DNA of 64,000 nucleotides from assembly GCF_004010195.1 (NCBI RefSeq), contig NC_057736.1:35748515-35812514 (forward strand). Reading direction: 5' to 3'. Made by a program: the position numbers and the translations under genes. Position 1 is the stretch's first letter. Each line of letters starts with the position of its first letter. The notes below the pieces were generated by a model. That model had not been told where the DNA came from, searched no databases, and worked only from the letters and a program-made list of their open reading frames with translations. Shown here one piece after another: positions 7,031-58,340 of the stretch. This stretch comes from Chiloscyllium plagiosum (taxonomy: Eukaryota).

Positions 7031-7270
7031 GAGAGAAAGTGAGGACTGCAGATGCTGGAGTACCAGAGTTGAAAAATGTGGTGCTGGAAAAACACAGCAG
7101 GCCAGTCAGCATCCGAGGAGCAGTAGAATCGATGTTTCGGGCATAAGCCCTTCTTCAGGAATGAGGGGAGCGCATTCCTGAAGAAGGGCTTATACCCGAA
7201 ATGTCGATTCTCCTGCTCCTCAGATGCTGCCTGGCCTGCTGTGTTTTTCCAGCACCACATTTTTCAACTC
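7031..7270. mobile_element. Palindromic Penelope-like insertion (family B) with hammerhead cores on both strands
   Basis: Inverted arms centred near 7168; TSD tttcctcatacat at 7018-7030 and 7271-7283; CTGAAGA-a-gggc-ttat-accc-GAAAtGTC at 7178-7205. Confidence 0.88.
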
Positions 7271-7672
7271 TTTCCTCATACATATTCATTTTAGTTCATT
7301 ACACAGTTGCTGAATCAGCTGTTAGTGAGCTTATAAAATGGCAATGATCCCTACTTCCTCAGTCACTTGCTCACGATTTGTTTTTGAGTGCATTGAAGAT
7401 TCAGAAAATATTGAACAAGGTGACCCCAAAACTGAGAAAATGCAAACCCTCATGTTTCATGTTGACATTTAACTAAATAGAGAAAATTTGTTTGTTTCAT
7501 TGTACCTCAAAATGAGGATTTACCAAAGGGGCTAATTTTATATTATTATATTTAATAATCCTCACCAACAGATGATACCAAAGTTGCAAAGGATAAAGTA
7601 AAATATATGGATACTTTGTCTAATCAGTTTGAATTAGAAAATACCAACTATAGCTTAATTTGTTTTGTTTAC

Positions 7673-7837
7673 CTTAAGCTGCTGGTTAGTCCGTTTGAGA
7701 AACTGTATTTCTTCTGCATGCTTCTTCTCCTCCACCTGACGTCTTTCATTCTCCCTTTTCTCTATGGCTTCACACTTCGCTTTCTGCTCGTTCAGTTGTC
7801 TCTCCAGTTCTTTCTTTTCTGCTTCCAAATCAATGAT
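7673..7837 (-). CDS. DNALI1: DNALI1 coding exon 5 (IIDLEAEKKELERQ...RTNQQLK)
   Basis: 165 nt; AG/GT boundaries; coiled-coil region near-identical to known DNALI1. Confidence 0.97.
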
Positions 7838-8051
7838 CTAACCAGGGAAAATATGCTCACAAGTTTTAATATAACATGGAATGGAAAATGAAGTCAAATT
7901 CCATTTTGTTTTCTTTTATGAGAAAGAAAGGCTTGTATTTATTGGTTATCCCTAATTATTATTGAGAAGATAGTGGTGTGACAGGCTGGATTGGACCTAT
8001 ACTTCTGATGGTTAGCCAATGTCCAGGATTTTGACCGAGTGTCACTGAATT

Positions 8052-10880: not shown

Positions 10881-10937
10881 ACCAACCTACTCACATGGGC
10901 ACTGAATGAGGATTTTTAAATCAACCCAAATGCTTAC

Positions 10938-11116
10938 CTTCTTTTCCATGTCAGTTTTGCCCTCTTCTGCTTGTAAAGCTTTCCTCATCCCAAAAGCCAC
11001 ACTGCTTTCGTACAGTGTCTGATAGGCAGAAATGGTCATTCGGATCTCATCGCGGACTCGCAGCAACAGTAATCCTCGCTCGGCACAGTTTATGGTCACT
11101 TGCCTGATTAGTTCAT
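10938..11116 (-). CDS. DNALI1: DNALI1 coding exon 4 (DELIRQVTINCAERGLLLLRVRDE...KTDMEKK)
   Basis: 179 nt; AG/GT boundaries; diagnostic axonemal dynein light intermediate chain (p28) sequence. Confidence 0.98.
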
Positions 11117-13414
11117 CTATAAAATCCAATGAAAAATGCAAAACTCAGAAAATATCCTGTGTCTTTCACAGCACACATGTCACAACAACAGAATGCTGTG
11201 TCACTTTTTTTTAATGTAGTTTATGTTTTTAAATCAAGTACATGAATGAGGAACACAGCATATAATTTAAGTGCTTACTGAATGTGTGCCTTTTAATGCA
11301 TTTAAGATAATTTGACTGTTCAGTTGAGTGCTTTTCCATTCAAGGAACGTGCTTGAGTTTGGATGTGATGCTCCAAAGTTGAAGAGCTTGATTACTGTCA
11401 GATCCAAGCATGGCACACAGGAGGATTGCCAGTGAACACAGAAAGTACAGGAGCACGTAAGTGTCTTTCCAAGTGAAATTGGAAGAAAGAAATGAGGGGG
11501 TTACTAACATTTACTTTATTAAACCTCACTTAGCAAAGCTGGATTATCGATACTGGGTTTATAAACTCAATACTTAACTACTTTAATGCTAAACCCCTTG
11601 AGTTATGAGCATAAATCAGCACAGATGTGAACAAGACCTACCGCATGGCCAAGTCTCAAATCAATGTTAACTCAGATACATAGATGGCAGATGGGCGAGT
11701 CACCTGAATCTGACATTTGGCTTCTACCACTGTTTACAGTTGTCCCTTGCCAACTGAGAACACAGAATGGAACCATATTCATGCCTGAGAGATGGGTGTA
11801 ATAACAAGATTTGTGGCAAGGTTGAGCAAGTTTCTCACTAGGCAGCAGCAAGTTGCCAATTCAGCATTATTGCTTGTTCGATGCCTTCTTAATGGCAAAC
11901 TTGCCTCATTAATATTCAGCTTTCTCTCTTATCAAACACACCAACAAACTAGATGTCAGGAATTCTTGACATGTAACAAATTGGTACCAGCATGCATTAT
12001 GGGCACTGGCCACACACATTCTACATTCACAGACATTAGCATCTGACATGAGGCAGTCTCTAAAAATCCTCATGGGACATCAGTGATCCACTTACAGGAC
12101 AATACTGCACTGAAAATACTGCAGTGCGGACTTTACCAAGAACTGTCATTATAATACTGCTGCAAGGATACAGTGCCCCTTCCTCTGCCTTGCTTTGCCA
12201 TTTAACACATGCACAAACCCAGGAGGCTTATCCAGGTTGGCAGAAGTCCTCAATGACGCCAAGGGACATAGCCTTCACTTAGGCAGTGCCAACACAGTGA
12301 GTCAAGGCCAGCCTTGAAAAACACTTCAGGGGTTTAGACACAGTCAGTCACTGAGGAAATCAGAATATCAATGCCCTCCACATAGCAATGAGGAGGCAAA
12401 GGTGGGCAATGCACCACCTGTCTTTCTTCCCTATTGTGGGCTGTTTTCCACCTGGGATTTGAGAAAGGCAGAATGCAAGTGGGTGCCACAGCTGTTACTT
12501 TTGTTGCAAATAGGAAGAGTCCTGAATAACTGAATAGCTCATGCATAGGAACTGCAGGGTTAGTGGTGTCAGGAGTTTGGAGTAGGTGAGAGCAGTTGGG
12601 AGAGATATTGCAGGCAACAGTGAGAGTGGTAGAGTATAAGTCTTGGTGGGACTCTAGTACAGCAACAGAAATAGTGTGAGGTATCAGAGAGAAGATGCTG
12701 GCCAAGTGGAGCAAGTCATTCTACGCTGTAGAATATTCCTCTACACAACTGAAACTGGCCTCAGCTGGATGGTCTGGTGTTGTAGCCTCCACAGCTGGTC
12801 CTGGGCAAAGAGGGTATCCACATCTATACACCATCATTCTGCAGGGCTTCCAGATTCCTGTCAGCATAGCGAGTTGCCAATTTTCTCATTGCTGTGCTGG
12901 AACAAATGTCAGGGACTTTGCAGGGCATCTCTGACTGACAGAGTTTTCCTGGGTACATAATGGACTTTTAAAAATGGCACAAGACTTGCTGCTCTTTCAG
13001 TGGGTGCCACGTTGCTTCAGAAAGGACACGTGGTAATATTTAGATAAAATCAAATGAGAGGGAAGCCATAAGGGTGGGATGGGTAGTTAATGAGGTAGTT
13101 TAATAAGTTAAGACAAGATATTTCACTTCAGGCTTCACAGCAGGAACCAAGTGAAACTTGCACTTAGTCAATAAAACATAAGATTCATCACAGAATTTTA
13201 AATGTGTAGATATTTTGCTTCTGCACCGATGCATTAAACCATATTGTAACTGTGTTAAATTTTGTTCCTTGAGATTCACAAAGGGATTCTGATTAGAGAT
13301 TTTGCAATAAAAGCCAGATCATTGAATTTCTCTGAAGATTTGTTATTAACGTTTGTGCTTATAACAGATTATAACCATATTGACAAATGAGAAACCAGTC
13401 CTGAAGAGACTTAC

Positions 13415-13584
13415 CAAAGCATTGAGAGTATAGCTCCCTACGGACAGGGCAAATTCCAGTCTCTCGAGCTTGCCTCTGCTGCAGCTTGAGATCCAGTTGT
13501 TCCTGCAGATGGACAACATCAATCCGAGTGCAGGGAGTACTGGATACCTGCTGAATCCACAGCTGAGAATTCTCTGTCCATTCT
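13415..13584 (-). CDS. DNALI1: DNALI1 coding exon 3 (EWTENSQLWIQQVSSTPCTR...RELYSQCF)
   Basis: 170 nt; ttgcag acceptor and gtaagt donor; phases fit the neighbouring exons. Confidence 0.98.
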
Positions 13585-14479
13585 CTGCAACAAAATGTAA
13601 GCCACTGAGAGTTACAAATGAACTGGAATTGTGAAATTATCTTTCTTTTTGGAAATTGCTCTCCATCTGCTTTGTGTTTCTTTTTCTATCAATAGTATAT
13701 ACTTAAAGATTTTGTACTATTCAAGTCTTGTGTCAATCTTCTATTTGGAATATCGTCGAAGCCTGCCAGGATTGAACACAACGATGCCAAGCTGGTAGAG
13801 CACTGAACAGATGCACAAAAAAGCTTTCTTCCTACTTCCTAACAATTCTATTTTCCAACTCCATTGTGGAAGAGCACTCGTTCTGTCAGTCAGCCATCTT
13901 TGTGTTATCTTGCGTGAGGCTGCCAATCCAGTATCAGATGACTTTTGCTTTATGGTCACTGGGGACTGAGTTGAAACTCAAATTCAATGGATAACATTAA
14001 TCTCACTGGATCAACATCAACTGTACAAAACCTGGGATTCAGACTAATCTTAGCTTGAAATTAAAAGAGAGAAAACTAGAAACACTCAATCAGGTAGGCA
14101 GTATCTGTGAAGAGAGAGTTAACAGGCAGGATTTTGAGCTCCCAGAACTGTATAACTAAGGAAGTAGAGATAATCTGAAACTAAATAATGAGGGGCAAGG
14201 AATCAAATGTGGGAGGATGTGGCATATTACAGAGTGCAAGAAAGGACAACAGTATTCTGATAAATGGGGGTCAGGAAATACAGGAAGGGGCTAAGAAAAA
14301 CAAAACTAGGAAAAAATTAACAATCGAGGTTAGTTGTTAAAAAATAACAGAGACAAAATAAAAGCTCTGTACCTGAACGTGTGTAACATTCATAACAAAG
14401 TAAATGTTTGATGACAACCGACACTGAAGTGAATAAATATGATTGTACAGCATTATAGACACAAGGCTTAAGGATGACA

Positions 14480-14675
14480 AGGAGAAAGTGAGGACTGCAG
14501 ATGCTGGAGATCAGAGCTGAAAATGTGTTGCTGGAAANNNNNNNNNNNNNNNNNNNNNNNNNNNNNNNNNNNNNNNNNNNNNNNNNNNNNNNNNNNNNNN
14601 NNNNNNNNNNNNNNNNNNNNTCCTTGGATGCTGCCTGACCTGCTGCGCTTTTCCAGCAACACATTTTCAGTTCAG
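14480..14675. mobile_element. Palindromic Penelope-like insertion (family B) with its centre in an N-gap
   Basis: Both inverted arms visible; flanking direct repeat ttaaggatgaca. Confidence 0.8.
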
Positions 14676-14852
14676 TTAAGGATGACACGGAATGGATCCT
14701 TAATACTGAGGGAACATGACGCTGAAGGAAAACAGAATGCTAAGCAAAGGTGAGGGGGTAGCACTATTAATCAGGAATGGCATTTGTGCAAATGTTAGAG
14801 ATGAGATGACCTTGGTTTAGGAGATCAAAATGTTGAACTTTATTAGGTATAG

Positions 14853-15702: not shown

Positions 15703-17856
15703 CAGACCTGGGCATTTTACGGCCCACGGGCCCTTTGGTTGTTCCTGTCTGGCCCGCATGAGGTCAATCTTAAATTAGAACATAAATGAAAAAGTATTAA
15801 TGCCATGCACGCAATACAACTGTGTTGCTTTTGTTTTGAAAAGGATGCTTTTTTTATTTATGTATGGACATATATGCACGTGTATGTGCGTGTGTGCGTG
15901 AACAGCTAAAAGGGATGCTTGCTGGCTAGCCTTCAAAATGTCAGCTCACACCAAGACAAGTTATGTCATATCCCTCAAAATCACCAGAAAAAGCAAACCG
16001 TTTTCTGATGGAGAGTTTATTAAGGAGTGTTTGTTGGACTCTGCAGAACTAATATGCCCGGAGCAAAAGGAGGCATTTGAGAATGTGCCCCTCTCCCGTG
16101 CACTGTAACGAGAAGGATTGGGGACATCGCGAGAAATCTGGAGCTTCAGCTGCAGCACAAAGCGGTCAACTTTGACTTTTTTTTCCTTGGCTTTGGATGA
16201 GAGCTGCAACGTATGTGACACAGCCCAGCTACTCACCTTGGTATGTGGGATAACTACGGACTTTAAAATCACGGAGGAGCTGGCAGCCATGCAGTCAATG
16301 AAAGGAACAACAATTGGTAATGATTTGTTCACGGTGGTAAATGCATGTTTGGACACATTGAGACTAAAATGGGACAAGCTGGCAAGCTGATGTGACAACG
16401 GATAGTTGTCCAAATCTCACGGGAAAAAATGTTGGACTCTTAAAGAGAATGCAGGATAAAGTAACAGAAATTGACCCTGAACAGAAATTGGTATTTTTGC
16501 ATTGTATTATACATCAGGAAGTGTTGTGTAAGTCAGTGTTAAAAATTAACCATGTGGTTAATGTTGTAACTAAAATAGTTAACTTCATCAGGGCAAGAGC
16601 TTTGAATCACAGGCAGTTTGTTGCACTTTTGGAGGAAAATGAGACTGAACATCGTGACATAGGCACCACACAGCTGTCAGGTGGCTCAGCCTGGACAAAA
16701 TGCTGAAAAATGTACGGGACCTGAGAGGAGAGATTCAAGATTTCTGTGTGAAGAAAGGGAATGGCATTCCACAGCTTTCAGATGCAGACTGGATTGCAGA
16801 TCTTGGTTTTGCTGTTGATGTGACTGCACTTATGAATGAACTAAATGTGAAACTGCAGTGTAAGGGCCCTTTTGTGCATGAAATGTACAACTTGGTGAAG
16901 GTTTTTATTAGAAAGTTGCAGCTTCTCTCAAGCCAAATGGAGGACAACATTCTCACTCACTTGCCAACACTGAAGGAAACCACATCTTCAGCTGATCACC
17001 TCCACAGGTACTCATCTATGTTAGAAGTCACCTATGGTGACTTTTCAAGGCGATTTCAAGACTTTAAAATGGTTGAGAATGAAATGCACATGATTTTTTT
17101 CCCCATTTACATGCAATGTGGAGAATGCACCTAATGATGTTCAGCTTGAACTCATTGACCTGCAGTCAGACACACTTCTGGCAAAGTACTTTAGGTCAGT
17201 CTCACTGTTTGATTTTTACTCTTCCCTCAAAGAGGAGAACTTTTCACACATGAGGAGGCATGCTCAGAAGATTCTAGTCCTTTTTGGATCTACCTATATA
17301 TGCGAACAGACATTCTCAGTGATGAAGTTCAACAAATCCAAATACAGATCCTCTATCACTGATGATCACCTCTCAGCTGTCCTTCGCATATCCACCTCAG
17401 ACATTCAACCAGATTTCAGTGCACTTGTTCAAGCCCAAAACAGACTGGCTTTTTCTCACTAAACAAGTAAAATTAACTGAAAAACATCAAAAGCACTTAT
17501 TGCTTTTTGTATAGAATTGTTTGTTGTTTTTAATACTGAACAATAATGAAACAACTTCTCATTATTGGGTTGTGAGATTAACATGTTAAAAATAAAATGA
17601 AATACTGAAATTATTGTTTTTACTGTTTATTTCTTCTATATTTGACCTACTCCACAATTTCATATTTTTATTGTAACAGAATATCCTTATTCTTTTGATT
17701 ATAAGTTTCAGTGCAAAACTATATAATTTAGTACATTTTACAATGGGAGAAAATTAATACTGAGCAAAATTGTGTTCAACTTATTGTTGGTTCAGCCCTC
17801 CAACACAACTCAGGTTTCTCATATGGCCCCTTGGAAGAATTAATTGCCCATCCCGG
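15703..17856 (+). mobile_element. hAT (Buster/Charlie, GTF2IRD2-like) DNA transposon with frameshifted transposase
   Basis: 8-bp TSD ttcTAtgt at 15695-15702 and 17857-17864; imperfect TIRs cagacctgggca / tgcccatcccgg; motifs FSLALDES, TTD, HCIIHQE, FGSTYICEQTFS. Confidence 0.93.
15945..17462 (+). pseudogene. Disrupted hAT transposase (four ORF pieces; no N-terminal BED finger visible)
   Basis: ORFs 16118-16390, 16392-16706, 16700-17134 and 17118-17462 are collinear transposase segments in different frames. Confidence 0.9.
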
Positions 17857-21945: not shown

Positions 21946-22035
21946 AAGGGCCTGTGCCCGAAACGTCGAATCTCCTGTTCCCTGGATGCTGCCTGACCTG
22001 CTGTGCTGTTCCAGCAATAAAGTTTCATCTTTGAT
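21946..22035 (+). mobile_element. Truncated family-B Penelope-like arm (hammerhead lacking its CUGA half)
   Basis: Near-identical to 58258-58340. Confidence 0.8.
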
Positions 22036-27899: not shown

Positions 27900-29150
27900 C
27901 TAAACAGAAAATGCTAGAGAAACTCAGCAACTTTGGTAGAGAGAGACAGAGTTAATCTCTCAGAACCAAGGGCCTGGAAAATAGCTTTTAACAAGATGAG
28001 GTGGGGGTTGGGCATGGTGAGCAAAATATGAAGGCAGTGCTAATGGTGGTAAAGGAGAGATTAAGATATAAAGTAGGTGTTAATGGTAATTTTGAACAGG
28101 AGAAAATAGGTCAGCTCTGCTGAGAGCAGGGCCAGCAAAACATAAGCAAGACACAGGGAAGGGAGGGGATGTTGTAATCAAAATGAAACACGGTGTTCAT
28201 GCTCTGAAGCTGTTAAACTCAATGTTGAATGCTGAAGACTGTAAAGTGCCAAAGTGGAAAATGAGGTCCTGTTCCTCCACCTTGTGTTGAACTTTCTTGG
28301 AATGCTGATGCAGGCCGAGAATGGAAATGGGAATAAGATGATTCACTGAAATGGCAAGCAACTGGAATATCAGGGTCATCCTTACAGACAGAGCAAAGAT
28401 GATTGGTAAAGTGGTTACTCAGTCTCTATTTTGTCTTGCCAATTTAAACGGGATCACATTGTGAGAAGTGAATACAGTAGATTAGTTTGAAAGAAGCATA
28501 AATTAAATATTTCACTTGGAAAATGTGTTTGGGATCTTAGACAGTAAGAGAGTGGAGGCAAAGGGGCAAGTAATACCCATCTAATTTGCATGGGAAGGGG
28601 CCGTGGTAGTGGTATGGATGAATAATGGAGGAAACTCTTAGCGTAGTGAACCAGAATTCACAGAAGGAACAATCCCTGCAGAAAGTTCACAGTGTGGGAA
28701 GAGAAGATGAATTTGATCATACATCCAGCTAGAGGTAGTGGTAAGGGCAGAGAATATCCTCTAAATGTGGAGACTGGTGGTGTGCAAAGTGAAAACAAGG
28801 GGATCCCTATCATTGTCTGGGAGGGAGGGAGGGAAAGTGGTGCAGCAAATGGATAACATACATCTCAAGGCCCTGTCAACCATGGTGTGGGGCAATCCTA
28901 TCTCCAGAAATAAAATCAGTGAAGTCAAGAAAGGGAGGGGGAGAGTCAGAGATAGACCAGGTGAAGGTGAGAAAAGAACAAATGCTGGAAGCAAAACTGG
29001 TGAATGTTTCCAATTCTGAATGAGAGCAGGGAGTAGTCCTGATGACATTATCAATGTACCAGAGAAAGAGCTGGGGGAGGGAGCCTAAGTGGTTCTGGAT
29101 CAAGGAATGTTCCACATATTCCACAAAGAGATAGGCATAGAACATAGTTA
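27900..29150 (-). mobile_element. Decayed Penelope-like element (RT, GIY-YIG C-terminus and terminal repeat)
   Basis: LFLWYIDN (YIDD-type RT motif) in ORF 28876-29196; KVEEQDLIFHFGTLQ..FNIEFNSF C-terminus in ORF 28197-28379. Confidence 0.8.
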
Positions 29151-30339
29151 TTTGTAATAAGTAGTAATTCGTGGTAAGTTCAGAAAACTGCTCCATGTTT
29201 TATGTTAACTGAATCTATTAAACAGGTAAATTGGGGACTTTGTATACTTTGATAAAATTGTCAACTTTTGTGATGATTCTGGAAATAGTAGGCCTTGATT
29301 TCTAGCACAGACCCCAAGGTGGTGTGACATGTTGACAATTGAACAAAATAAAATGTACAAAACACAATCTCTTGGATAAAGTATGTTATACCTATGCTGC
29401 ATCTGTGAAAACAACTGCTTGCTGCCTGTTGTACTAACCAGTGAGGACATGGTAACAGTGTTGCCACATTTGAGGGACCATCATCCAGAGTTTGGGAACC
29501 ATTAAACTCCTCAGCTACAGCCTTCACAGGAAATGCTTTAGTCACTGGCAGGTGTCTGTACCTAAACCAAGAGTGACAGGTATTGTAGTAGCAGGGTGAA
29601 TGTCCTTTCATATATTCCTAAATTATCTATTACAAAGACATATAATGGGCTGCTTACATCCAATGCTTCAAATAAGTGTTGCAGAATTTTTCTGGTTTTG
29701 AACTCTATCCAATGTATTTAGCAGGGCATTTAATTTAGGAAAAATATTTGGCATATGTTTAAATTGCTGTTTCACAACAACATCCTGTGTTTATACAGAA
29801 CCTTCAACATAGAAAAATGTTCCAACTTGCCTTCTGTGTTTAACTCAGATAAGAATTAAAAGAAATCAACATTGTATTAGGCTTTCTATAGGCACTTGCT
29901 ATAGAACAGCAATTGCTTTTTGCATCATTCCAGTCAGCACATCTGTCAGAGGCTCCCAGAAATTCACTTTCAAATTAAAAGTCTTACTCATCAGTTTAAA
30001 TCTTTTTCTTGATTTGTCTGCCCTGTCTTTGGAAGTTATTTCCTGCCCTACACCAACTTCCCAATATAATTTTTCATTCCTCCATCTTTGCTCGTTCCTT
30101 CCTTCCACTTATCATTGTCAGTTGGTGAGGGCTTGCATTGCTGGAATTCCTTCTCTAAACTCTTCCATATCCTTCTCTTCCTTTGGATTTTTTTTTAACA
30201 ATCCAGCAGTTTGACAGATACTTTGGTTACTTATTTGGTTTACCATTAATATTTTTTCTCCTGTTATGCCTCCGTGCACAGTCTTCTTCATGAAAGGTTC
30301 TGTATGAACGGAGGAGGTCGTTATCAGACAGCAATTTAT

Positions 30340-35015: not shown

Positions 35016-35127
35016 TGAAACAATAATCTCTACTGGTTGCCATGTGAGGTTTTTTTTTTAACCAATTGTCTGTCAATTTCTGGCTGTGTCATGACTTGCG
35101 AAATTAGATTTTTCTCATTGCGTTCAG

Positions 35128-35735
35128 GAACGGCATGACCATTCGCAACGGGATCATGCTGAGAGACGACACAGAGACCACTCCGATAGAAATGGACACC
35201 GGCGCAAGAAGAACAGTGACCGAGAGCGACACAGAGAATGTTCAGACCGGGGGCGAGGCCACAACAAAAGGAATGGCAGCTCTCACACAGAAGCTGGCGT
35301 GAGTGGCCGAGACAGGGAGGCTCAGCTCCTCAGCACCCAGCAGGCCGAGCGAGAGTATTACAATGAGAGAAGGCGTCAAAACCGTAATCAGTGCCCCCTG
35401 CTCAATGATAAGAATCCTGCCTCTGAGTCAAATGACAGCCAGGTTCCTAGTGGCAATGCAGCCCAAGTGAAAGAGGAGCCAAATTTTGAGCTGTCTGGTG
35501 CCCTCGTGGAAGACACAAACACCTTTCGTGGAGTGGTGATAAAATACTGTGAACCACCCGAGTCCCGGATCCCAAGGAAACGATGGCGTCTTTACCCATT
35601 CAAGAATGATGAACCACTTCCAGTCATGCACATTCATCGTCAGAGTGCCTATCTCTTGGGTCGACAGCGTAGGGTAGTGGATATCCCAATTGACCATCCT
35701 TCCTGCTCCAAGCAACATGCAGTGCTACAATACAG
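35128..35735 (+). CDS. SNIP1: SNIP1 coding exon 2 (ERHDH...EPNFELSGAL...WRLYPFKND...SCSKQHAVLQYR)
   Basis: 608 nt; FHA-domain motifs GR, DHPSCSKQHA; AG/GT boundaries. Confidence 0.97.
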
Positions 35736-35816
35736 GTTGGTGTTTAAAAAGCTGTTAATGTAAGATTGTGAGGAGTGGGGCTAAACTGGATTGCTATGTG
35801 GGCTCTAGCGTGGACA

Positions 35817-36065
35817 GGGTGAAAGTGAGTACTGCAGATGCTGGAGATCAGAGTCAAGATTAGAGTGGTGCTGGAAAAGGACAGGAGGTCAGGCAACATC
35901 CGAGGAGCAGGAAAATCGACGTTTCGGGCAAAGGTCCTTCCTGATGAAGTGCTCATGCCCGAAACGTCGATTCTCTTGCTCCTTGGATGCTGCCTGACCT
36001 GCTGCACTTTTCCAGCAACACATTTTCAGCTCTGATCTCCAGCATCTGCAGTCCTCACTTTCTCC
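35817..36065. mobile_element. Palindromic Penelope-like insertion (family B) in SNIP1 intron 2
   Basis: Inverted arms; imperfect TSD agcgtggaca / agcatggaca; CTGATGA...GAAACGTC at 35941-35968. Confidence 0.85.
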
Positions 36066-37837
36066 AGCATGGACAAATTGATTGAATGGCTCCCTGTGCC
36101 GTAAATGACTAAATCTAACTGGGACTTTGCATTGATCTGATATCAGTCGATCTGATGCAAATCCCTTTGGATTTCCTGGTTGTTACCCGTCCCCCATTTT
36201 ATCAGTCACCTTCTATTCGCTGTCCAAGGTTCTCTCTCCCACTTTCTGTTATAGGAAATAGAGAGATTGCAAAATGATTTTTCTTTTTCTCAATGGACAG
36301 CAGTTACTATAGTACAGTCTTTCCATGAAAAGCAGTTAGTTATATTAAAAAACTACTTAAAAAAAACCTAAACAAACATCCAATTAAGAACTGAGCTCAT
36401 GATCACAGTGATAGTTTCCTTACTGAGCAATAACTGTAAAGGGCTTGATGTTTCCTTGGGATAGAGAAACTGGACTCTTGGGCTCTTGATATTCTGGAAC
36501 TAACGAATGAACTTACATTTCCGAGTCACCCTGAGTCACTGCATAGCATTTTATAATCAATACAGTAGTTTTGAAATGTAGCTACTGTTGTATTTTCGTA
36601 AATGTGACAGCAGTTTTATTTATGGATTTAACAAGTACACTTTTAGTGATGGAGCAGTGAATGGGAAGCAGGCAATGTTTATCAAAATGTTTGGCTTGGG
36701 GCATTAAATGAATGGAAGTGGTTTGTGAGTGAGTAGATTTTACATACTATGATAATTTTGGGTTTGACAGACCATAGCTTTTGTCCAATTCCACAGTCCA
36801 GTACAAAAGTGGTTGTTTTAGCAGTCTGTTACCCTATTTTTATTTCTCTAAATCCCCTTTTGAAAGCATCTCCATCACCCTTTGGTACTTTGAGAGAAAT
36901 ACTTAGGTGTAATAGTTAAAATGTATGGTTTCAAGGTGCATGTGTCAATGATCTGATTTTATTTAGCTAGATTGAGCAAAGTTAATGGGTAGCTTTGCAT
37001 TACACTTTGTGCTGTGATCACTTTTACCAAGATTAAATTTATTCAGTCAATTGCTTCTAGTTCTTTATGTTAATTCTTCAAGATGGTTTTTTTTTTATCA
37101 TAGTTATTAGGGTGCTGAAGGAGGCCATTTGTCCTCTTGAGTACATGCTGGTTCTCTGTAGATCAGTTTGATTCACCCTACTTTCCTTCTGTCATCTTGT
37201 AAGCATATTTCCCTCTAACACCATTCAACATTGACACATCCTGTGCAGCTATATTTTGCTAGGAGAAATTTTGGAGGTTGTCTTCAGCTACGGAAGTGTT
37301 TTTGTCATTTGCTGCTTTCATCGAATTCGGGTGCATTTAGGGTTCCTGTTTCAGTCAAGGAGACATTCCAGTCTCTGACAGTGCTGCTGAAACCTGCCTG
37401 CATGCAGGTGAATACAGACAGCACAAAGTTACTTTATTGCAAGTTCTTTTCTCCTTTCCTTCCACATGTTTTTGCCCTCCTCTCTTGTATGGACTAACAG
37501 TCTCCCTCCCACAGTAGCTTTTAAAAAATATCATAGTTTATTGTAGCTATCTCTGATGCCTGGATATGCCTATTAATACTGTTAGTTGAGGGACCTGGGA
37601 GCCTCATTGGGTCTTCATTTCGGTGGTCAAGGATAAAGCTACACTTTGCATCTCACTGGGTCTTTCTTGTGGTGTAACTTTGGGTTGAGATTGTTAGCTC
37701 CTTTTAACTTGCATTTAGTAAAAGCTCTGTATAGTTCTTCCTATTTTCACGAGACTGGAGTAGAAATTACAAAACCTTATATCATTGTATCGCAGGTGGT
37801 ATGCAGAATAACATGCTTTTTGTTTTGCCCCCTGCAG

Positions 37838-38096
37838 ACTTGTGGAGTTCACACGGAATGATGGCACACCTGGCAGGAGGGTGAGACCGTACATCATCGA
37901 CCTGGGTTCGGCCAATGGCACATACCTTAACAATCAGCGCATTGAGTCACAGCGATATTATGAACTCAAAGAAAAGGATCTGCTGAAATTTGGCTTCAGC
38001 AGCAGGGAGTACGTCATTCTACATGAATTCTCGGATACTGCTGAGGTGGATGCAAAAGAAGGGCAGCATGATGAGGATGAGGAAGTTGAAAGTTAA
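37838..38096 (+). CDS. SNIP1: SNIP1 last coding exon (LVEFTR...YIIDLGSANGTYLN...FGFSSREYV...EVES*)
   Basis: ctgcag acceptor; FHA C-terminal half; TAA stop; total CDS 1134 nt. Confidence 0.97.
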
Positions 38097-41047: not shown

Positions 41048-41930
41048 CCTGAAAGAACTGCAGATGGTGGAATCAGCAACCAAAACACACATTGCTGGAA
41101 AAACTCAGCAGGTCTGGCAGATTCTGTGGAGAAAAATCAGAGTTAACATTTCAGGTCCGTTGACCATTTTTTCAGAACTGACAGTAGCTTGGAGAATTTT
41201 TTTTATGCAGAAGGTAGGGTGGAGAGGAGACCACATTGTAAGTAGCAAATACAGTAGACAAAATTTAGTTAAGTGCAGGTAAATCGCTGCTTCATCTGGA
41301 AAGTATGGCACTTTGGATGGTGAGGAAGTAAACCGGCAAGTGTTAGGCCTTTTGCGATTGCAGGGGAAAATGCCATAGGCGTGTTGGGGAATGTTGGGAG
41401 TGAAGGAGAGGTAGGGCAGTGTGACCTGAGGGAATGGTGCTTGCGGAAGGCTGACAAGGGACAAGAGGGGAATATGTGTCCTCTACATTGGGGAAACGAA
41501 GCACAGACTGGGTGACTGTTTTGCAGAACACTTACATTCTGTCTGCAAAAAGACACTGAGCTTCCAGTTGCCTGTCACTTCGACACATCATTGTGTTCCC
41601 TGGCTAACACCTCTGTCTCAGGCTTGCTGCAGTGCTCCAGTGAAACTCAGGAGAAGCTGGAAGAGCTACACCTCAGTTTCCCCCTCAGAACTCTGCAGCC
41701 TTCTGTAATTAACAGGAGTTCAATAATTTTAGTGCTTGATCACCTTTTCCCATGCCCTTACCCTAATCCCCAATGACCAAGCCTTGTCATTACATGTGCT
41801 GCTACCAAACACTACCCATTGTCAAATACTAATAGTCCCTATTAACATCTATTCGTTCTCCGCGGTTGACCTTTATCCACTCCATTGTCTGTCCAACTGT
41901 TTTTCTCTATTGGAGTTCAGTCTCCAATGA
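41048..41930. mobile_element. Penelope-like element remnant with internal inversion (GIY-YIG endonuclease)
   Basis: Minus strand GIFPCNRK..TC and KQRFTCT; plus strand YIGETKHRLGDCFAEHL at about 41483 and KLEELHL.F.LRTLQP. Confidence 0.82.
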
Positions 41931-44260: not shown

Positions 44261-44925
44261 AAGTGGGAGATGGCACAGGGCTGGGTGATACTAGGCACAC
44301 CGACACACAAGATGGTCGCTGGACCAAACTATGGAGATAAACAGCAGAGCAAATACAGACACAGCCTGGGGCCATCAGAATGCCAGTATAATGTATTCAC
44401 AACCTAGTTGATTAGTTTAAGGCAGGTGGGGGAGAGAATAGACATGAGTAGCGTACACTGCCCGCCGAAGTGTCTGGGACCAGCCAGCACCTTTGACAGA
44501 AATGCTAACAGCTCTGTACAGACTCAATACAGAGTGCTAATAGCCAGGGCTACAGTAAAATTAACAAAGGCTGCACTGGAACTGACAATGACTGCACCAA
44601 AACGATCAATGATTCTGCAATGTTTACCATAAACAAACCATGTTAGAAAGACAACAATCTCATCACAAAATGTATAAAAGTATGTTGACATGTGCTCCGG
44701 GTTGAGAGAAGAATCGCAGCTGACCACTGTGCTGTTGGTGTCTTTCTCTCCCTGGAGCTCCGGTATTTCCTTGTACAATAAACTCTGTCGTTGAACCCTG
44801 ACTCTGACTCTGAGGCTGTTGATTTCCCTCACAACAGACTTATATGTGTGTGCATGCATGTGAGGGAGAGTGTGTGTATATGTGTGGAAGAGAGGGAGAG
44901 TCTGTGTGTGCGTGTGTGTAACAGA

Positions 44926-45331
44926 GTATATGCCTGAGAGGGTGTGCACACACTCAAACTCTTTCACTCTCTCTCCCACACACACACAGAATAAGTCTAT
45001 GGAGAAAATTTGTATTTGCAACCGTGGGTTGGTACCTGGGACTTTGATGTTGTGGCTATTACGGAACATGGGTAGAACAGGGACAGGATTGGCTGTTGCA
45101 GGTCCCAGGGTTTAAATGTTTTAGTAGGGTATATGCCTGAGAGGGTGTGCACACACTCAAACTCTTTCACTCTCTCTCCCACACACACACAGAATAAGTC
45201 TATGGAGAAAATTTGTATTTGCAACCGTGGGTTGGTACCTGGGACTTTGATGTTGTGGCTATTACGGAACATGGGTAGAACAGGGACAGGATTGGCTGTT
45301 GCAGGTCCCAGGGTTTAAATGTTTTAGTAGG
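44926..45331. repeat. 203-bp tandem duplication, apparently exact
   Basis: 44926-45128 repeated at 45129-45331. Confidence 0.92.
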
Positions 45332-46072: not shown

Positions 46073-47199
46073 NNNNNNNNNNNNNNNNNNNNNNNNNNNN
46101 NNNNNNNNNNNNNNNNNNNNNNNNNNNNNNNNNNNNNNNNNNNNNNNNNNNNNNNNNNNNNNNNNNNNNNNNNNNNNNNNNNNNNNNNNNNNNNNNNNNN
46201 NNNNNNNNNNNNNNNNNNNNNNNNNNNNNNNNNNNNNNNNNNNNNNNNNNNNNNNNNNNNNNNNNNNNNNNNNNNNNNNNNNNNNNNNNNNNNNNNNNNN
46301 NNNNNNNNNNNNNNNNNNNNNNNNNNNNNNNNNNNNNNNNNNNNNNNNNNNNNNNNNNNNNNNNNNNNNNNNNNNNNNNNNNNNNNNNNNNNNNNNNNNN
46401 NNNNNNNNNNNNNNNNNNNNNNNNNNNNNNNNNNNNNNNNNNNNNNNNNNNNNNNNNNNNNNNNNNNNNNNNNNNNNNNNNNNNNNNNNNNNNNNNNNNN
46501 NNNNNNNNNNNNNNNNNNNNNNNNNNNNNNNNNNNNNNNNNNNNNNNNNNNNNNNNNNNNNNNNNNNNNNNNNNNNNNNNNNNNNNNNNNNNNNNNNNNN
46601 NNNNNNNNNNNNNNNNNNNNNNNNNNNNNNNNNNNNNNNNNNNNNNNNNNNNNNNNNNNNNNNAAAAAAAACACTGCTGCCCGCTACCGGTAAGCACTTT
46701 TAAAACCAAACGGTCTTACCTTCGCTGCTGCTCGCACTGGAGATGACCGGCGGCTTCGAAGGGTGAGTATAAATACTCACCGCTTTCCTTCCCGGCTGCC
46801 CCTCTGGTCGTCGTCACTTCCCCCTGGTGCTCCCGCTCTTTCTGTGAAGAGAGAGTGAAAGAGAAAAAAAAACACCGCTGCCCGCTACCGGTAAGCACTT
46901 TTACCGGTAAGTATATTCCTATCTGCTCCCCAGGTGTAGTCATGTGCCCAGTTAAAGGTGAGGAATCTAACCCTCCAATCCCTTCTCAGAGGCTAATGGG
47001 CCTGTAACCAGACAGCCTGGATCATCATCATGGCTCCTTCAAATTGCTGTCTCATATTCGGTGGCTACTGTGTCTGTTACATATTAATCTACATAGGTAA
47101 TGTACATACACAATACATACATTATTTATGTGTGTGTGTATAATATATGATACATATGTATTATATATGTATCATATATTATATACATACATAAAATAT

Positions 47200-47294
47200 G
47201 AGCCCTGAAGAAGGGCCTATGCCTGAAACGTCGACTCTCCTGCTCCTCGGATGCTGCCTGCCCTGCTGTGTTTTTCCAGCACCACATTTTTCAA
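47200..47294 (+). mobile_element. Single-arm family-B Penelope-like insertion with intact hammerhead core
   Basis: CTGAAGA-a-gggc-ctat-gcct-GAAACGTC at 47205-47232; flanking repeat ataaaatat. Confidence 0.82.
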
Positions 47295-48039
47295 ATAAAA
47301 TATAAACAGTCCACCAGCTAGGTCAAGGTATCTCTTTCATATTTAATGAACTACACTGTAAGTATTATTTCAAACTGCTTTGTGCGTTCTGTTTGTTACC
47401 AATGCAGTTATAGCTGTGTTAATATTAAATGCATTCTTTGTGTCTGTTTATTAATTTATAAATGTTTAACTTTACCAGTGTGTCATTTACAAATCTGTCT
47501 ATAAATGTTATTGATTAATTCATTTGTGTATTCATCAGTTGCAATAGTCATATTTTGTTATATTGGTTTTATTGATTATTTTTGTGTAAGTCTTGCTTTT
47601 GAATACATTTGCTTGTTTCTTCCAGTTGTTTCCAATACATCTGGATGTGTGTTTACATGAACAATAAGTTGACCTTACAACATTAATCAGTAACAACCTT
47701 CACCTGGAAGTGTCAGTATGATACATGCCGCAGTATCGAGTGGATGGGAAATAGAGTGGAGTTGAAACCAAAATGAAAAACACTATTCTGAAGCCCCTAC
47801 CTGAGTCACAGCCCTAGCATGGACATCCACATGGAGGTGACCAAATGTTCAGAGTATGTGGGTAGGGAGGCAGGATTGAATAGGAGTGGGGTGAGGCACA
47901 GTTTCCAGGGTGAGACGCAGGCAATAAAGCAGCTTCAGGCTCCATGATATGAGACTCAGCACGACTTCCTTCCACTTGTGTCTTGCTGGATCTGTGAAGG
48001 GTAGGCTAGCCCAGGTTGTGGAACAGAGTCACCTCGATG

Positions 48040-48245: not shown

Positions 48246-48787
48246 AAATACATTCTATTTTGTTCAAAACACACAATCCTGTGGGCAGTCAATCCATGTG
48301 ACATTTTCTAAATTCCTACCAGTCTGACTCAAGGTGTCGAATACAGACAAACCCTGACCTCACACCCTTAATGCATTGTCTGAGCTGAGAAGTCACCCTT
48401 TTTTTAAAAACCTTAAGTTAAATTGGGATTGTGACTTCAAAGAAATTCTGGGGTTTACATATTAATGAATCGAAACTTGCAACCCATTCAAAGTGATTAA
48501 AAACTTAACAGCAATCTAAGTTTGTTGAATAATCGCATCACTTGTATTACAATAAATTCTGTGTCCTCTGATCCTGCCCCACTAGTTTCCTGAAGGTGCA
48601 TCACTCCGAAATCTTGTAGTTTCAATTAAACCTGTTGGATTATAACCTGGTGTTGTGTGATTTTTAACTTTGTCCACTCCAGTCCATCACTGGCACCTCC
48701 ACATCTTGAGGGTGGCAGTGTATTTGGCTAAAGTTAAAAATCACATAACACCAGGTGAGAGTCCAACAGGTTTATGTGGAAATACTA
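48246..48787 (+). mobile_element. Penelope-like terminal region (family C) with decayed hammerhead and a short inverted copy
   Basis: cctgaaggtgcatcactccGAAA at about 48589-48611; 48628-48671 is inverted at 48730-48773. Confidence 0.6.
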
Positions 48788-50385
48788 GTGGTGGTGTGTT
48801 CAGTGTAATTCACCCTCCAGTCCTGAGGGCGGCAGTGTGTTCAGTGTCATTCACTTTCCAGTCCTGAGGATGGCGGTGTGTTCAGTGTAATTCGCCCTCC
48901 AGTCCTGAGGGCGGCGATGTGTTCAGTGTAATTCACCCTCCCGTCTTGAAGGCAGTGGTGTGTTCAATGTAATTCACCCTCCAGTCCTCAGGGCATCGGT
49001 GTGTTCAGGGTAATTCACCCTCCAATCCTGAGGGTGGCGGTGTGTTGGATGTAATTGACCCTCCAGTCCTGAGGGCGGCAGTGTGTTCAGTGCAATTCAC
49101 CCTCCAATCCTGAGGGCAGCGGTGTGTTGGATGTAATTCACCATCCAGTCCTGAGGGCAGCAGTGTGTTCAGTGTAATTCACCCTCCAGTCCTGAGGGTG
49201 GCGGTGTGTTGGATGTAATTTACTCTCCAGTCCTGAGGGCAGCAGTGTGTTCAGTGTAATTCACCCTCCAGTCCTGAGGGTGGCAGTGTGTTGGATGTAA
49301 TTTACCCTCCAGTCCTGAGGGCGGCAGTGTGTTCAGTGTAATTCACCATCCAGTCCTGAATGTGGCGGTGTGTTTAGTGTAATTCACCCTCCAGTCCTGA
49401 GGGCGGCAGTGTGTTCAGTGTAATTCACCCTCCAGTCCTGAAGGCAGCGGTGTGTTCAGGGTAATTCACCCTCCAATCCTGAGGGTGGCAGTGTGTAGGA
49501 TGTAATTTATACTCCAGTCCTGAGGGCGGCAGTGTGTTCAATGTAATTCACCCTCCGGTCCTGAGGGTGGCGGTGTGTTGGATGTAATTCACCATCCAGT
49601 CCTAAAGGCGGCGGTGTATTCAGTGTAATTCACCCTTCAGTCCTGAGGCAGCGGTATGTATAGTGTAATTTACCCTCCAGTCCTGAGAGTGGCAGTGTGT
49701 TCAGTATAATTCACCCTCCAATCTTGAGGGTGGCGGTCTGTTGGATGTAATATTCTCTCCAGTCCTGAGGACGGGAGTGTGTTCAGTGTAATTCATCCTC
49801 CAGTCCTGAGGGCGGCGGAGTGTTCAGTGTAATTCATCCTCCAGTCCTGAGAGTGGCAGTGTGTTCAGTATAATTCACCCTCCAATCTTGAGGGTGGCGG
49901 TCTGTTAGATGTAATTTACTCTCCAGTCCTGAGGGCGGGAGTGTGTTCAGTGTAATTCACCCTCCAGTCCTGAGGGTAGCGGTGTGTTGGATGTAATTCA
50001 CCATCCAGTCCTGAAGGCAGCGGTGTGTTCAGTGTAATTCACCCCCCAGTCCTGATGGTGGCGGTGTGTTCGGTGTAATTCACCCTCCAGTCCTGATGGT
50101 GGCGGTGTGTTCAGTGTAATTCACTCAGTCCTGAGGGCGACGGTGTGTTCAGTGTAATTCACCCTCCAGTCCTGATGGTGGCGGTGTGTTCGGTGTAATT
50201 CACCCTCCAGTCCTGATGGTGGCGGTGTGTTCAGTGTAATTCACCCTCCAGTCCTGATGGTGGCGGTGTGTTCGGTGTAATTCACCCTCCAGTCCTGATG
50301 GTGGCGGTGTATTCGGTGTAATTCACCCTCCAGTCCTGATGGTGGCGGTGTGTTCAGTGTAATTCACTCTGAGTCCTGAAGGTGC
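48788..50385. repeat. 41-bp minisatellite, about 39 units, abutting the MEAF6 5' end
   Basis: Consensus gtgtgttcagtgtaattcaccctccagtcctgagggyggcr; period measured from 48801 to 48842. Confidence 0.97.
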
Positions 50386-51984: not shown

Positions 51985-52195
51985 AATATTACAGATGCTG
52001 CAAATCTGAAATAAACACAGAAAATGCTAGAGAAACTCAACAGGTCTGGCAGTATGTGTGGAGAGAGAAACAGAGTTAAAGGTTTGAGTCTGGTGTGACT
52101 TATTCTTTCTAAAGAAGAGTCCTATTGTACGCTGGTATTCTGTTTCTCTCCAAAGATGCTGCTAGACTTGTTGAGTTTCTCCAGCATTTTCTTTG
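51985..52195. mobile_element. Older palindromic PLE-like insertion (related pieces at about 3810-3925, 14070-14120, 39690-39745, 62065-62190)
   Basis: aaaatgctagagaaactcaacaggtctggcag is inverted at 52158-52190. Confidence 0.65.
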
Positions 52196-52387
52196 CAACA
52201 CAAAGTTTATAAATGCATTGCAAATGACAAATACTGGCTAATTGTACATCACAATCCCTGTGTCTGTTTTGGGAACTAACCAGCTTAGCTTCAAATGATG
52301 TGTATCCTGACAAAAAGTATTTATTCTTTGTCGTTGTTCTATAAATTTATTCTTTGTAAAACCATTTTCCATGATTATTTGAAATAA

Positions 52388-52732
<345 letters not shown>

Positions 52733-54891: not shown

Positions 54892-55418
54892 GTAATTTGT
54901 GCAACAGTAGTTCATGAAATTGCAAGATGAGTGGGGCAAGAGTGGAGGAGGCTTGTTTGGCTTGGTCCTTACAAAGCTACTTGATTGCATTCATGAAAGT
55001 AGAAGAACCACCTGTTAGTAAGAGTACGCATTTGAGTTAAATATGGCTTGACATTATTATACAAGGAACATTTTTTTGGCATATGTTTCTAGCACACTGC
55101 TCCTTGTACATTGACTGTGTGCTGTATACTACCCACTGCTCTATTGCATTTTAATGAAATTGGGGGTTTAACTCAACAAAGCTTAATTGTTTCCATGTAA
55201 TAAATTGTTGAGAAAAAAATCATCGTTTTCAAGAAATTATAACTGTTAAGGTTAAAAATAACATTTCTGAATATATTTATTTCTCCATTTAGTTCATCAA
55301 ATCGCCAGTGTTTCTCACTTTTTTTTTGTTTAAAAATATAATGTTCCAAATAGCTTGAGACTCTGAACTGGTGTGTTAACCTTTGTTACTTTCTTTCTTC
55401 TTCTATGCTGCCATCCAG

Positions 55419-55448
55419 CCCATCTGGCATGTTTGATTATGACTTTGA
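55419..55448 (+). CDS. MEAF6: MEAF6 30-nt alternative microexon (SPSGMFDYDFE)
   Basis: Strong polypyrimidine tract, tgctgc, then ccag; gtaagt donor; frame-preserving; peptide matches the long mammalian isoform as I recall it. Confidence 0.93.
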
Positions 55449-58128
55449 GTAAGTTTGCTTTCTATCAGTATATGTGCTGTGTTTTTCCCAGTATTCCCCT
55501 GTACTGTGAAATGTAGACTGTAGACATTTTTGGAAATACTTACTATCTTTTGCCACTAGCTGCTGTAAGTTTGGATATTTGCCAGTGTATGTTAGGGCCA
55601 TGTAACTGGAATGTTTATGAAATGTTCTCAACAGCAGTCACAGTGCGACAACGCTTGTTACATTTTATATTAAATTTAGTTTCCAGGCAGAAGATATTGT
55701 TGATAGTGGTTTCTTCTATTGAGTAGAGTATCTGACCAAGCAAAGTACAGTCATCAGTGTAACTTCAGCTACGCTAGCTCTCATACACACAGCTATTCCG
55801 TCTTTCATCAGTAATGGAAAATGAGTACTGCAACAATCCATGGATTTGTAATAAATCTACAGTTATGAATTTCTGTGACAAGAGACCCTCAGTATGTTGT
55901 GTAAAGATGGAAAACAGGGGACCATGTTGTAAATTTACAAAGCAGATAGGACTTTAGAAATTGAAAATTCTCTCCAGGTTCTCAACAAACCCTACAGTCT
56001 CCTCTATTGTTTGAAGTACTTAATCTGAGGGGTTTGCACCATAATCAACATTTGAACCAAATTTAGCCAAAACTAATAAAGTGGAAATTTTCTTTCTCCA
56101 TTGACAATAAGTGAAATGTAATCATGTTGACCCATTTCTTGATGGATATCTGTTCACAGTCAATGATCTGGCTGAAAATTAACTTGCCTTAAAGGTAAAA
56201 TGGCCTTTAAAGAATCTATAGAATTACAGAATTGTTTCGGAGCCATTGCGTCTGCACCTGCTGTCCTAATGCACATTATGGCTTAGTGCTGTTTTCCTGC
56301 CTTAGTTTCGTAGCCCTGCACTTTTCTTTGTATTCACATAAGCATCCAATGCAGTCTTCAATGTCTCAATTGAACCTGCCTCCACCACACATCCAGAGAG
56401 TACATTCCAAATTCAGACTAGTCACTGTTTGGAAAAGATTCTTCTTGTAGCACGTTTGCTTCTTCTGTGTTTTTCTTTAAATCTGTGCTTTCTCATTTGC
56501 AATCCCTTTGTGAGTGGGATTAGCTTCATGATATCTACTGTCCTTAACACTCATGGTTTTGAAAACAGCTATCACATCTCCTTTTAGCTGTTCTCTGATC
56601 TTTCCTCATAACATTGCTTATGTACATTCGCATCAAGGTCTCTCTGCTCCTGCACACCATTTAGTGTAGAACACAATTTTTATACTGTCTGTCCGTGCTC
56701 TTTTTACCAAAATGTATTATCGCTCGTAACTCTGCAATGAGCTTCAAGTGCCACCTATTTATCCAGTTCACCAACTTGTCAATGTCCTTTTGAAGCATTA
56801 AATTGTCCCCCACAGTTTACAAATGTTCCAAGTTTTAGATCATCTGCAAACTTTTATATTATCCCCATCAGACCATGGGCTAGATTGGTAATTTTTCTTG
56901 GGAAAAGTGATGGGTCCCACACTTATCCCTGGAGGAGCACTATTTCAAACCTTTTTCCAGCCCGAAAAGTATTCATTGCACGTTGCAATTTGTCTCTTAT
57001 CACTCAGTCACCTTTCCATCCAACGTGCTACTGTTCCTTTTATTTCATAAACTCGATTTGTGTAGTATTGCATCAGATACCTTTTGGAAGTCTGCTTACA
57101 CCACATCAACAGCAGTATCCTCACTCATTCTCTGTTACCTCTACAAAAACTACAGCAATTTATTTAAACTTTGATTTAAATCCATGGTGCTTCTCCATTA
57201 TTCACAAGTGCTTACCTATGTAACCATTAATTTTATTCCAAAATAGTGGTGGCGGGAAAACCTCAGGAAACAAAGTTAAATTGATTGCTTTATAATTTCT
57301 GAGCTTATTCTTAAAAAAAAAAACTTTCTTAAGCAAGATTGTAATGCTTGGAATTCTTTAGGCATCTGGCACCACTCTTGAGTCCAAAGACTGAAGAAAT
57401 ATAACAGTGCCTTCACAGTTTCCACTCTCACTTCCTTCTGTATCCTTGGAAACATCTCATCTGGTCTCAGTGTCTTATCAACTTTAATTACAGACTATTC
57501 AGTGCCAACTCCATATCAGGTTTGAACTCTTCTAGTGACTAAATATCCTCCTCTGTCACCATAGCCTGGGTAGCTTTGCTTTCTCAGTAAAGACAGATGC
57601 AAGATATTCATTTAATTGCTCAGCCATGTCCCTGCTTCCATATATAAATCCTGTGTTGTCCATAATAATCCCTACTCCTCCTTTTACTTTTATGTGCCTG
57701 CAGAAGCCTTTCAGATTTCCTTTGTTAGGTGTCTGGATTTGTTTGCCCTATCTGTCCCTTTTGAGGGAATTTCCTTGAATGTACCTGATCTATTTTGTCC
57801 TTGAAGGTAGTCCATTGTTCAGTTGGATTTCCCTGCCAGCCTTTGGCTCCAGTTTATCTGGCCCAGCTCTGTTGTTGCCCAGTTGAAGTCCCCTCTCCCC
57901 CAGTTAATTATTATTCTTCTGGTTTGTTCATTGTTCTTTTCTACCATCATCTTAACTTTTATGAAATTGCAATCACTGTCCTAATGATGTTCTGCCACTG
58001 ACACTTGATTTACTTGGCTCACCTCAACCAGGTCAACCAGTGCCTCCTTTCTTGTTGAATTGTGTACGTAGTGCTGTAGAAAAGTCTCCTGAATGCAATC
58101 TAGGAATGCTTGCCCTCCCTGCTATTAA

Positions 58129-58340
58129 GGAGAAAGTGAGGTCTGCAGATGCTGGAGATCAAAGTTGAAACTTTATTGCTGGAACAGCACAGCAGGTCAG
58201 GCAGCATCCAGGGAACAGGAGATTCGACGTTTCGGGCACAGGCCCTTCTTCCTGAAGAAGGGCCTGTGCCCGAAACGTCGAATCTCCTGTTCCCTGGATG
58301 CTGCCTGACCTGCTGTGCTGTTCCAGCAATAAAGTTTCAA
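58129..58340. mobile_element. Very young palindromic Penelope-like insertion (family B)
   Basis: Perfect 88-bp arms 58164-58251 and 58254-58341; 14-bp TSD ctccctgctattaa at 58115-58128 and 58341-58354. Confidence 0.92.
58249..58282 (+). ncRNA. Minimal type I hammerhead ribozyme motif
   Basis: ttc-CTGAAGA-a-gggc-ctgt-gccc-GAAAC-GTC-gaa: full core, 4-bp stem II, 3-bp stem I. Confidence 0.7.

Follow-up and report, generated by a model that had tools for sequence, protein, structure and literature searches.

Short insertions that carry hammerhead ribozyme motifs, some of them palindromic and some consisting of a single arm, are very abundant in the genome of Chiloscyllium plagiosum (assembly of 3.56 Gb). 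We studied them starting from a 64-kb stretch of contig NC_057736.1, here called the window, for which a preliminary description had noted eight such loci. All eight are confirmed, seven belonging to one repeat family (family A) and one, at 1744, to another (family B); a 20-nt family-A motif has 10 matches in the window, where shuffled sequence gives an expectation of 0.01. Both families derive from Penelope-like elements (PLEs): the loci are short insertions of two endonuclease-bearing PLEs, probably built at each landing by twin priming.

In twin priming, the PLE enzyme would cut each target strand once, with some 14 nt between the two nicks, and both 3′ ends would be extended on the element RNA. 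The two target 3′ ends point inward, and each would prime an antisense complementary DNA (cDNA), leading to a head-to-head product with its 3′ ends outermost. Each nick would be primed at one start site, probably on one RNA, and the two outer ends of the product may correspond to the two internal reverse transcriptase (RT) start sites known in vitro from a lizard PLE. The rule that only one arm is tailed would follow from there being one RT start per nick. The cDNAs would meet head to head and be end-joined, often at a 3-nt repeat, and a single arm would reflect the survival of just one of them. A weaker part of the proposal concerns family A, in which both cDNAs may usually run off the RNA 5′ end at an initiator-like motif 4 nt upstream of the hammerhead core. 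The family-A stubs would then represent ‘strong-stop’-like products that cover the initial 95-130 nt of a transcript left uncleaved, and the hammerhead would be central merely because it is located at that RNA end.

Ends and junctions of the insertions

Positions in family A are counted from C3 of the hammerhead core (position 0, equal to 58252 in the copy at 58129). The main series consists of 76 consecutive young insertions found through a motif at +55..+86 and covering 98 of the first 100 listed matches; it is less biased than an earlier series of 80 insertions collected via a motif at +4..+34. The first three locus sets had been picked by best match and were kept out of the distributions.

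The main series comprises 30 simple palindromes, 41 single arms and 5 complex insertions that were excluded from the counts. Every one of the 30 palindromes is head to head and combines one tailed with one untailed arm. Single arms occur in both forms, 23 ending at the tail and 18 at the inner, untailed site, and therefore both sites act as ends on their own. Family-A insertions have their outer ends at two fixed sites, separated by about 34 nt. A wider, partly overlapping set of 71 young palindromes gives the same picture: 63 pair a tailed end with an end at +84..+96, 7 pair it with another short end, and the remaining one (against 70/71 one-tailed) is doubly tailed since one of its arms runs into the open reading frame (ORF). 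Family B has the same two-end pattern, with outer ends at +70..75 and +105..111.

Target site duplications (TSDs) in the set of 71, taken at their maximal length, measure 11 bp in 2 palindromes, 12 bp in 3, 13 bp in 7, 14 bp in 22, 15 bp in 19, 16 bp in 6 and 17 bp in 5; the value is 14 or 15 bp in 41/71, and none was found in 7/71. This spread fits, roughly, a 14-nt stagger with added chance matches. In the series of 76, a TSD of at least 10 bp accompanies 26/30 palindromes versus 19/41 single arms.

The palindrome at 58129 recurs as a whole: all 40 scored candidates, the window copy included, match 213-214 of its 214 nt at 100 % identity, and the TSD is 12-17 bp in 29 of 30 loci with identical copies. 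Its exact junction is present in 273 copies, compared with 14,442 arm motifs, and the first 30 of these junction copies divide evenly, 15 carrying the tail on the truncated arm and 15 on the other. That one junction recurs so often with either tail polarity fits priming from both nicks and does not fit a single master copy or simple fold-back of a cDNA. Both series contain many different junctions, which indicates that palindromes are made at insertion, as the preliminary description had proposed. Its further statement that loops differ from copy to copy applies to the copies within the window and fails for the 58129 type.

Within palindromes of the main series, the short arm is the deeper-reaching one, with a lead of more than 3 nt, in 16/30 cases and the long arm in 8/30, while the two end within 3 nt of each other in 6/30. 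Family-A inner ends, scored on 101 arms, concentrate at -7..+2 (58 arms), with 12 upstream of -7, 15 at +3..+22, 6 at +23..+33 and 10 beyond. Stem I of the hammerhead begins at -4 and cleavage is predicted between +27 and +28, where the inner ends of family A form no peak. Among 30 loci with the ORF start, the repeat precedes it in 16, and these begin at -7..+2 in 9 cases, at -35 in one and downstream in 6. RNA reads of a related organism also break off at -4. Position -4 thus behaves as the 5′ end of the family-A element itself. Whether it is also the transcription start, with run-off there, we regard as an even question; the base at -4 is the A of an initiator-like motif. A splice acceptor at this position was ruled out since there is no AG.

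In family B, inner ends are scattered among 64 chained loci and no pile-up of 5′ ends was seen near a TATA-like box. The two inner ends of one insertion nevertheless tend to lie close together: they are at most 10 nt apart in 7 of 15 pairs, compared with a permutation mean of 1.4 (p 0.0002), in a hand-picked set of simple tailed and untailed pairs from which the doubly tailed loci L380 and L389 and complex loci were left out. Such near-coincidence fits a shared RNA end. Likewise, the arms of one insertion nearly always carry the same subfamily marks, which fits one RNA but is no proof of it.

Parent elements and their hammerhead

Family A is the terminal repeat (pLTR) of a PLE that encodes an RT, a zinc linker and a GIY-YIG endonuclease, and it includes a minimal hammerhead and a 34-nt tail. 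Exact matches to an intact 33-nt hammerhead motif number 8,658 genome-wide, and these loci lead upstream to a GIY-YIG frame. The 30 best matches to that frame share a Cx4CxxC linker, RT motifs are visible in the longest, and the repeat lies about 158 nt past the stop. The parent ORF at locus L257 matches the Pfam families RVT_1 (E 3.9e-08) and GIY-YIG (E 9.7e-05). In tandem copies the tail continues into the ORF start, and the same repeat both precedes the ORF start and follows the stop, which is the arrangement of a pLTR. A gap-free full-length copy of the parent was not recovered, the ORFs of 533-673 aa being broken by gaps or frame changes.

By its linker motif alone, family A may be assigned to the Neptune clade, for which a zinc-finger-like CX2-5CxxC linker before the endonuclease has been described (PMC8557442). 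The motif is found in all 30 translations and is common to Nematis too; Neptune is favoured because it has been reported in vertebrates. Family B runs upstream into an RT and endonuclease frame (locus L079) whose translation has no zinc-finger linker, as in Penelope/Poseidon, and is therefore best read as the putative end of a Poseidon-type PLE. RT and YIG motifs are seen in family-B translations, while a Pfam search with a 342-aa piece returned no match. The parent ORFs of both families lie in this genome, and the PLE origin suggested earlier holds for both repeats.

The inverted and tailed structure itself is already known for PLEs, and both families add members to it. They have the hallmarks of endonuclease-bearing (EN+) PLEs: a repeat-linked ORF with RT and C-terminal GIY-YIG domains, a tail of 30-40 nt at one end, an inverted 5′-truncated copy and a hammerhead motif in the pLTR. 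Described EN+ PLEs, among them Pen2a of Adineta, share the head-to-head inverted terminal repeat, the one-sided tail of that length, the TSD, partial tandems, the pLTR hammerhead and the parent with RT and C-terminal GIY-YIG (PMC8557442; PMC3846280). Unlike those examples, the insertions described here are mostly bare repeats, their TSDs measure about 14 bp versus 8-10 bp in rotifers, and family A has a sharp common inner end. Short partial tandems occur at L112:5700-7000, L140:2273-2850, L313, L316 and L325, where the cDNA seemingly jumped back to a point 80-500 nt inside the ORF start and recopied the repeat; the outermost unit often begins near -4. At L333:1-1442, 38 nt from the RT region of family A have been amplified to about 36 units in tandem.

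The ribozyme motif corresponds to the minimal hammerheads of metazoan PLEs (PMC4209133), with which it shares a short stem I, an unpaired base before stem II, the lack of a helix III loop and a palindromic 15.2-16.2; in contrast to these, most window copies are truncated or altered and the motif is predicted to be buried within palindromes. Among the noted loci, a minimal descriptor matches only 1744 (both arms), 7031 and 58129, with an unchanged C15.2-G16.2 pair in 58129 only. An Rfam scan of the window, taken up to E 1, returned three chance miRNA matches and no hammerhead family. Across four subfamilies, invariant positions number 11/12 in the core, 8/8 in stem II, 2/4 in loop II, 47/63 downstream and 29/31 in the tail. 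Core and stem II together are invariant at 19/20 positions, compared with 47/63 downstream (p 0.06), a pattern that fits selection on source elements. RNAfold predicts that the 58129 core, the only unchanged one in the window, is absorbed into an 89-bp stem on both strands. The earlier picture of a very large population of hairpins and ribozymes is accordingly right as to the population and overstated as to working ribozymes in palindromes, whose cores become part of the long stem. The minimal hammerheads of PLEs are only weakly active and require dimers or protein (PMC4209133; PMC11167929).

Proposed twin priming and alternative explanations

In LINE-1 twin priming, two target 3′ ends are primed on one RNA and an inversion within the TSD results. 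The second LINE-1 primer anneals internally by chance, whereas in the PLE stubs both starts are fixed and the arms cover the same sequence. A counterpart in vitro is PAc, a Poseidon of the green anole (PMC11167929): it likewise has two internal RT starts, which mark the limits of the tail and lie some 110-120 nt downstream of its hammerhead, and its protein nicks and extends both strands with no need for hammerhead cleavage. Its ORF starts inside the hammerhead, while in family A some 40 nt separate the tail from the first ATG of the ORF. The accessible part of that report draws no link between two-strand extension and inverted copies, and the origin of PLE inverted repeats and of the one-sided tail has been named an open question (PMC8557442). 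A more detailed version of twin priming, to which we give slightly less than an even chance, would have a PLE dimer make the staggered cuts about 14 nt apart and prime both ends on one RNA, with one active site on each side of the tail; Neptune-type cDNAs would run off the 5′ end just upstream of the hammerhead, and some 10^5 stubs would record this integration intermediate.

Several observations weigh against twin priming or its run-off step. Near-symmetric junctions, which make up 7/15 in family B and 6/30 (to within 3 nt) in family A, would equally result from fold-back, and the 15:15 split could have arisen by deletion between 3-nt repeats of a symmetric precursor, at or after insertion. 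The one-tail rule has exceptions in window locus 35817, with two tails of two subfamilies, and in family-B loci L380 and L389. Young palindromes show 6 shared vs 43 private variants, too few to tell one RNA from two. As for run-off, family B has no pile-up of inner ends, microhomology may sharpen the -4 peak, since bases shared with the TSD are common at single-arm junctions, and a cap-derived extra G gave no signal, a preceding G being present in only 2 of the 9 single arms that stop at -4. In RNA reads of a related organism (run X20) no pile of molecule starts was found. PAc, moreover, is Poseidon-type and family A is not. The X20 signal comprises 1305 reads on both strands, 91 % of which continue into other sequence, with loose ends at -4 (79 reads) and at +123..+125; run X21 gave none. 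It is read-through of host transcripts and no test of the start site. Separately, X20 reads at L140:2273-2690 show A>G and T>C at 16 and 17 places vs C>T and G>A at 10 and 5, which could reflect editing of the hairpins but which, for want of a DNA control from that organism, we do not count as such.

The likeliest alternative keeps the PLE origin and makes the second arm by self-priming, or fold-back, of one strand, for example on an antisense template, as has been proposed for rotifer Penelope (PMC3846280); the endonuclease would later cut the untailed end, and deletion would reshape the junctions. Near-symmetric junctions and the same subfamily marks on both arms would suit it, and later deletion in the hairpin centre could blur the test by arm length. 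We hold it to be unlikely. If a tailed cDNA folded back, the tailed arm should extend further in without exception, yet this is seen in 8/30 palindromes and the reverse in 16/30 (7/15 in family B), and an untailed cDNA folding back cannot gain a tail. Moreover, 18/41 single arms stop at the untailed site with no second arm, one junction carries its tail on either side 15:15, and the common junction would need a 2-nt loop.

The preliminary description had instead placed the hammerhead at the origin of the hairpins, through template switching or fold-back at the ribozyme or through a short ribozyme-processed, non-autonomous RNA. The position of family-A centres at the hammerhead edge, the beginning of stem I at -4 and the conservation of core and stem II all speak for such a role. 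The family-A inner ends, though, cluster where the hammerhead begins on its 5′ side, which places them some 30 nt upstream of the cleavage site; a structural block would be expected on the 3′ side of the fold. Only 6/101 fall around the cleavage site, and the copies include sequence 5′ of it, contrary to a cleaved RNA. Family B possesses a hammerhead without an inner-end peak; its centres are scattered, and in 1744 the centre and the core, which lies downstream of it, are about 87 nt apart. The ribozyme is therefore no general trigger of fold-back, and the claim that palindromes centre on the hammerhead holds for family A only. Hammerhead mutants insert normally in vitro (PMC11167929). Ribozyme cleavage as the cause is largely refuted, and we rate this explanation improbable.

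Still less credible is a palindrome that moves as a non-autonomous unit and is copied whole, like a master miniature inverted-repeat transposable element (MITE) or short interspersed nuclear element. The identical 58129 copies, 40/40 over 213-214 nt, suggested it. Against a single master stand the ratio of 273 junction copies to 14,442 arm motifs, the two tail polarities and the otherwise diverse junctions, on which grounds it was rejected; the TSDs of about 14 bp, linked PLE ORFs and unequal termini also disagree with it. DNA-transposon MITEs have equal terminal inverted repeats, a short superfamily-specific TSD and a matching transposase. With unequal termini, a TSD of about 14 bp, a variable centre and a PLE parent, the insertions are not of that kind, as had been proposed; the variable TSDs offered as an argument are a weak one, the lengths being close to fixed. 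Non-LTR retrozymes are likewise non-coding, hammerhead-bearing and PLE-derived, but they are head-to-tail tandems with a ribozyme per unit, whereas here we find single or head-to-head stubs with TSDs (10.64898/2026.07.22.740005). This class was set aside, since the window copies and 71/76 insertions of the series are single or head to head and short partial tandems are rare.

The window, the genome and their significance

The insertions of the window are listed in Table 1. That of 35817 begins about 60 nt past the end of an FHA exon frame, and its two arms reflect either two RNAs in one event or later conversion of one arm. The hairpins had been called intronic, which is shown for 35817 only and is likely for some other loci.

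Table 1. PLE insertions in the window and parts of the 58129 copy (positions count from the first base of the window)
Feature	Position	Strand	Details
Young family-A palindrome	58129..58342		Inverted tailed arm (+2..+124), then untailed arm (-3..+90); 89-bp perfect stem; TSD 12-14 bp; identical copies elsewhere
34-nt PLE tail, on one arm only of the 58129 copy	58129..58162	-	
Minimal hammerhead motif	58249..58283	+	Stem I of 3 bp, core, stem II of 4 bp; cleavage predicted after 58279; buried within the 89-bp stem
Left TSD of the 58129 copy	58115..58128	+	Right copy 58341-58354; 14 bp, 2 of them shared with the element end
Older family-A palindrome	7031..7270		Tailed arm left, 9-nt spacer; 99-nt arms, 94 % complementary; core altered in both arms; 13-bp TSD 7018-7030 / 7271-7283
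Family-A palindrome with assembly gap across the junction	14480..14675		Centre is an N gap, junction not visible; 16-bp duplication with 1 mismatch, 14468-14483 / 14676-14691
Atypical family-A palindrome	35817..36065		Two tailed arms of different subfamilies, differing at 26/128 positions; 10-bp TSD with 1 mismatch, 35807-35816 / 36066-36075; in an intron of the FHA-domain (SNIP1-like) gene
Young family-A single untailed arm	21946..22035	+	Starts at about +5, 5′ half of core absent; TSD looked for, none found
Family-A single untailed arm	47200..47294	+	9-bp TSD 47191-47199 / 47295-47303
Decayed family-A single arm	3298..3373	-	No convincing TSD, 6-bp match only
Family-B (putative Poseidon-type PLE) palindrome	1744..2103		Untailed arm left, tailed arm right (tail 2071-2103); 159-nt arms, 97 %; hammerhead within each arm; centre ~87 nt upstream of core; 13-bp TSD 1731-1743 / 2103-2115

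Host exons in the window encode an axonemal dynein light chain (minus strand, 7667-7837, 10935-11126 and 13416-13595), an FHA protein (35095-35760 and 37812-38093) and a NuA4 protein (close to 52460 and 53850), presumably DNALI1, SNIP1 and MEAF6, respectively. A degraded hAT-type transposase remnant at 16100-17460 falls narrowly short of the cut-off (Dimer_Tnp_hAT, E 0.0004). By eye, old pieces at 28876-29199 (minus strand) and 41100-41710 (plus strand) resemble RT and endonuclease parts of a family-A-type ORF, with negative Pfam results, and 60-64 % relatives of the family-A arm at 52149-52201 and 62149-62201 are likely ends of older PLE families. An array of 41-nt units (48704-50311) lies directly upstream of the GC-rich stretch that precedes the NuA4 gene. 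Exact direct duplications of 203 nt (44923-45328) and 164 nt (32156-32551) are possibly assembly artefacts or recent slippage.

The window is typical of the genome in its density of insertions. Exact young motifs number 14,442 and 21,891 for two family-A motifs and 4,972 for family B. Thirty-three arbitrarily chosen regions of 10 kb each (34 were fetched, and L091 was dropped for containing a listed match) yielded 31 family-A insertions, 7 of them palindromic, and 11 matches to the minimal hammerhead descriptor. Extrapolation gives roughly 3 x 10^5 family-A insertions in total and, from 7 per 330 kb, roughly 7 x 10^4 palindromes, in line with the very large population predicted earlier. Most insertions are the bare terminal repeat of 95-250 bp, in about 10^5 copies.

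Opposite-strand hammerhead pairs 100-700 bp apart were noted in Schistosoma in 2014 (PMC4209133). In the literature searched, a set with few subscription papers and without older PLE reviews, we found neither twin priming nor strong-stop run-off proposed for PLEs. New here are the 15:15 polarity count, the end statistics of consecutive series, the 5′ end that copies with an ORF have in common and the contrast with family B. Thousands of near-identical young stubs thereby supply counts that separate models, and they set numbers for an in-vitro test: nicks staggered by some 14 nt, RT starts near +90 and near +124..+128, and run-off at -4. If the dimer and run-off reading is true, one mechanism would explain the tail, the inverted pLTR and the TSD. 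For annotation, the stubs belong under PLEs and not MITEs. Palindromic repeats are known as editing targets in another repeat class (PMC5625713), and the present genome is seeded with very many hairpins of 90-160 bp, a possible source of double-stranded RNA in pre-mRNA.

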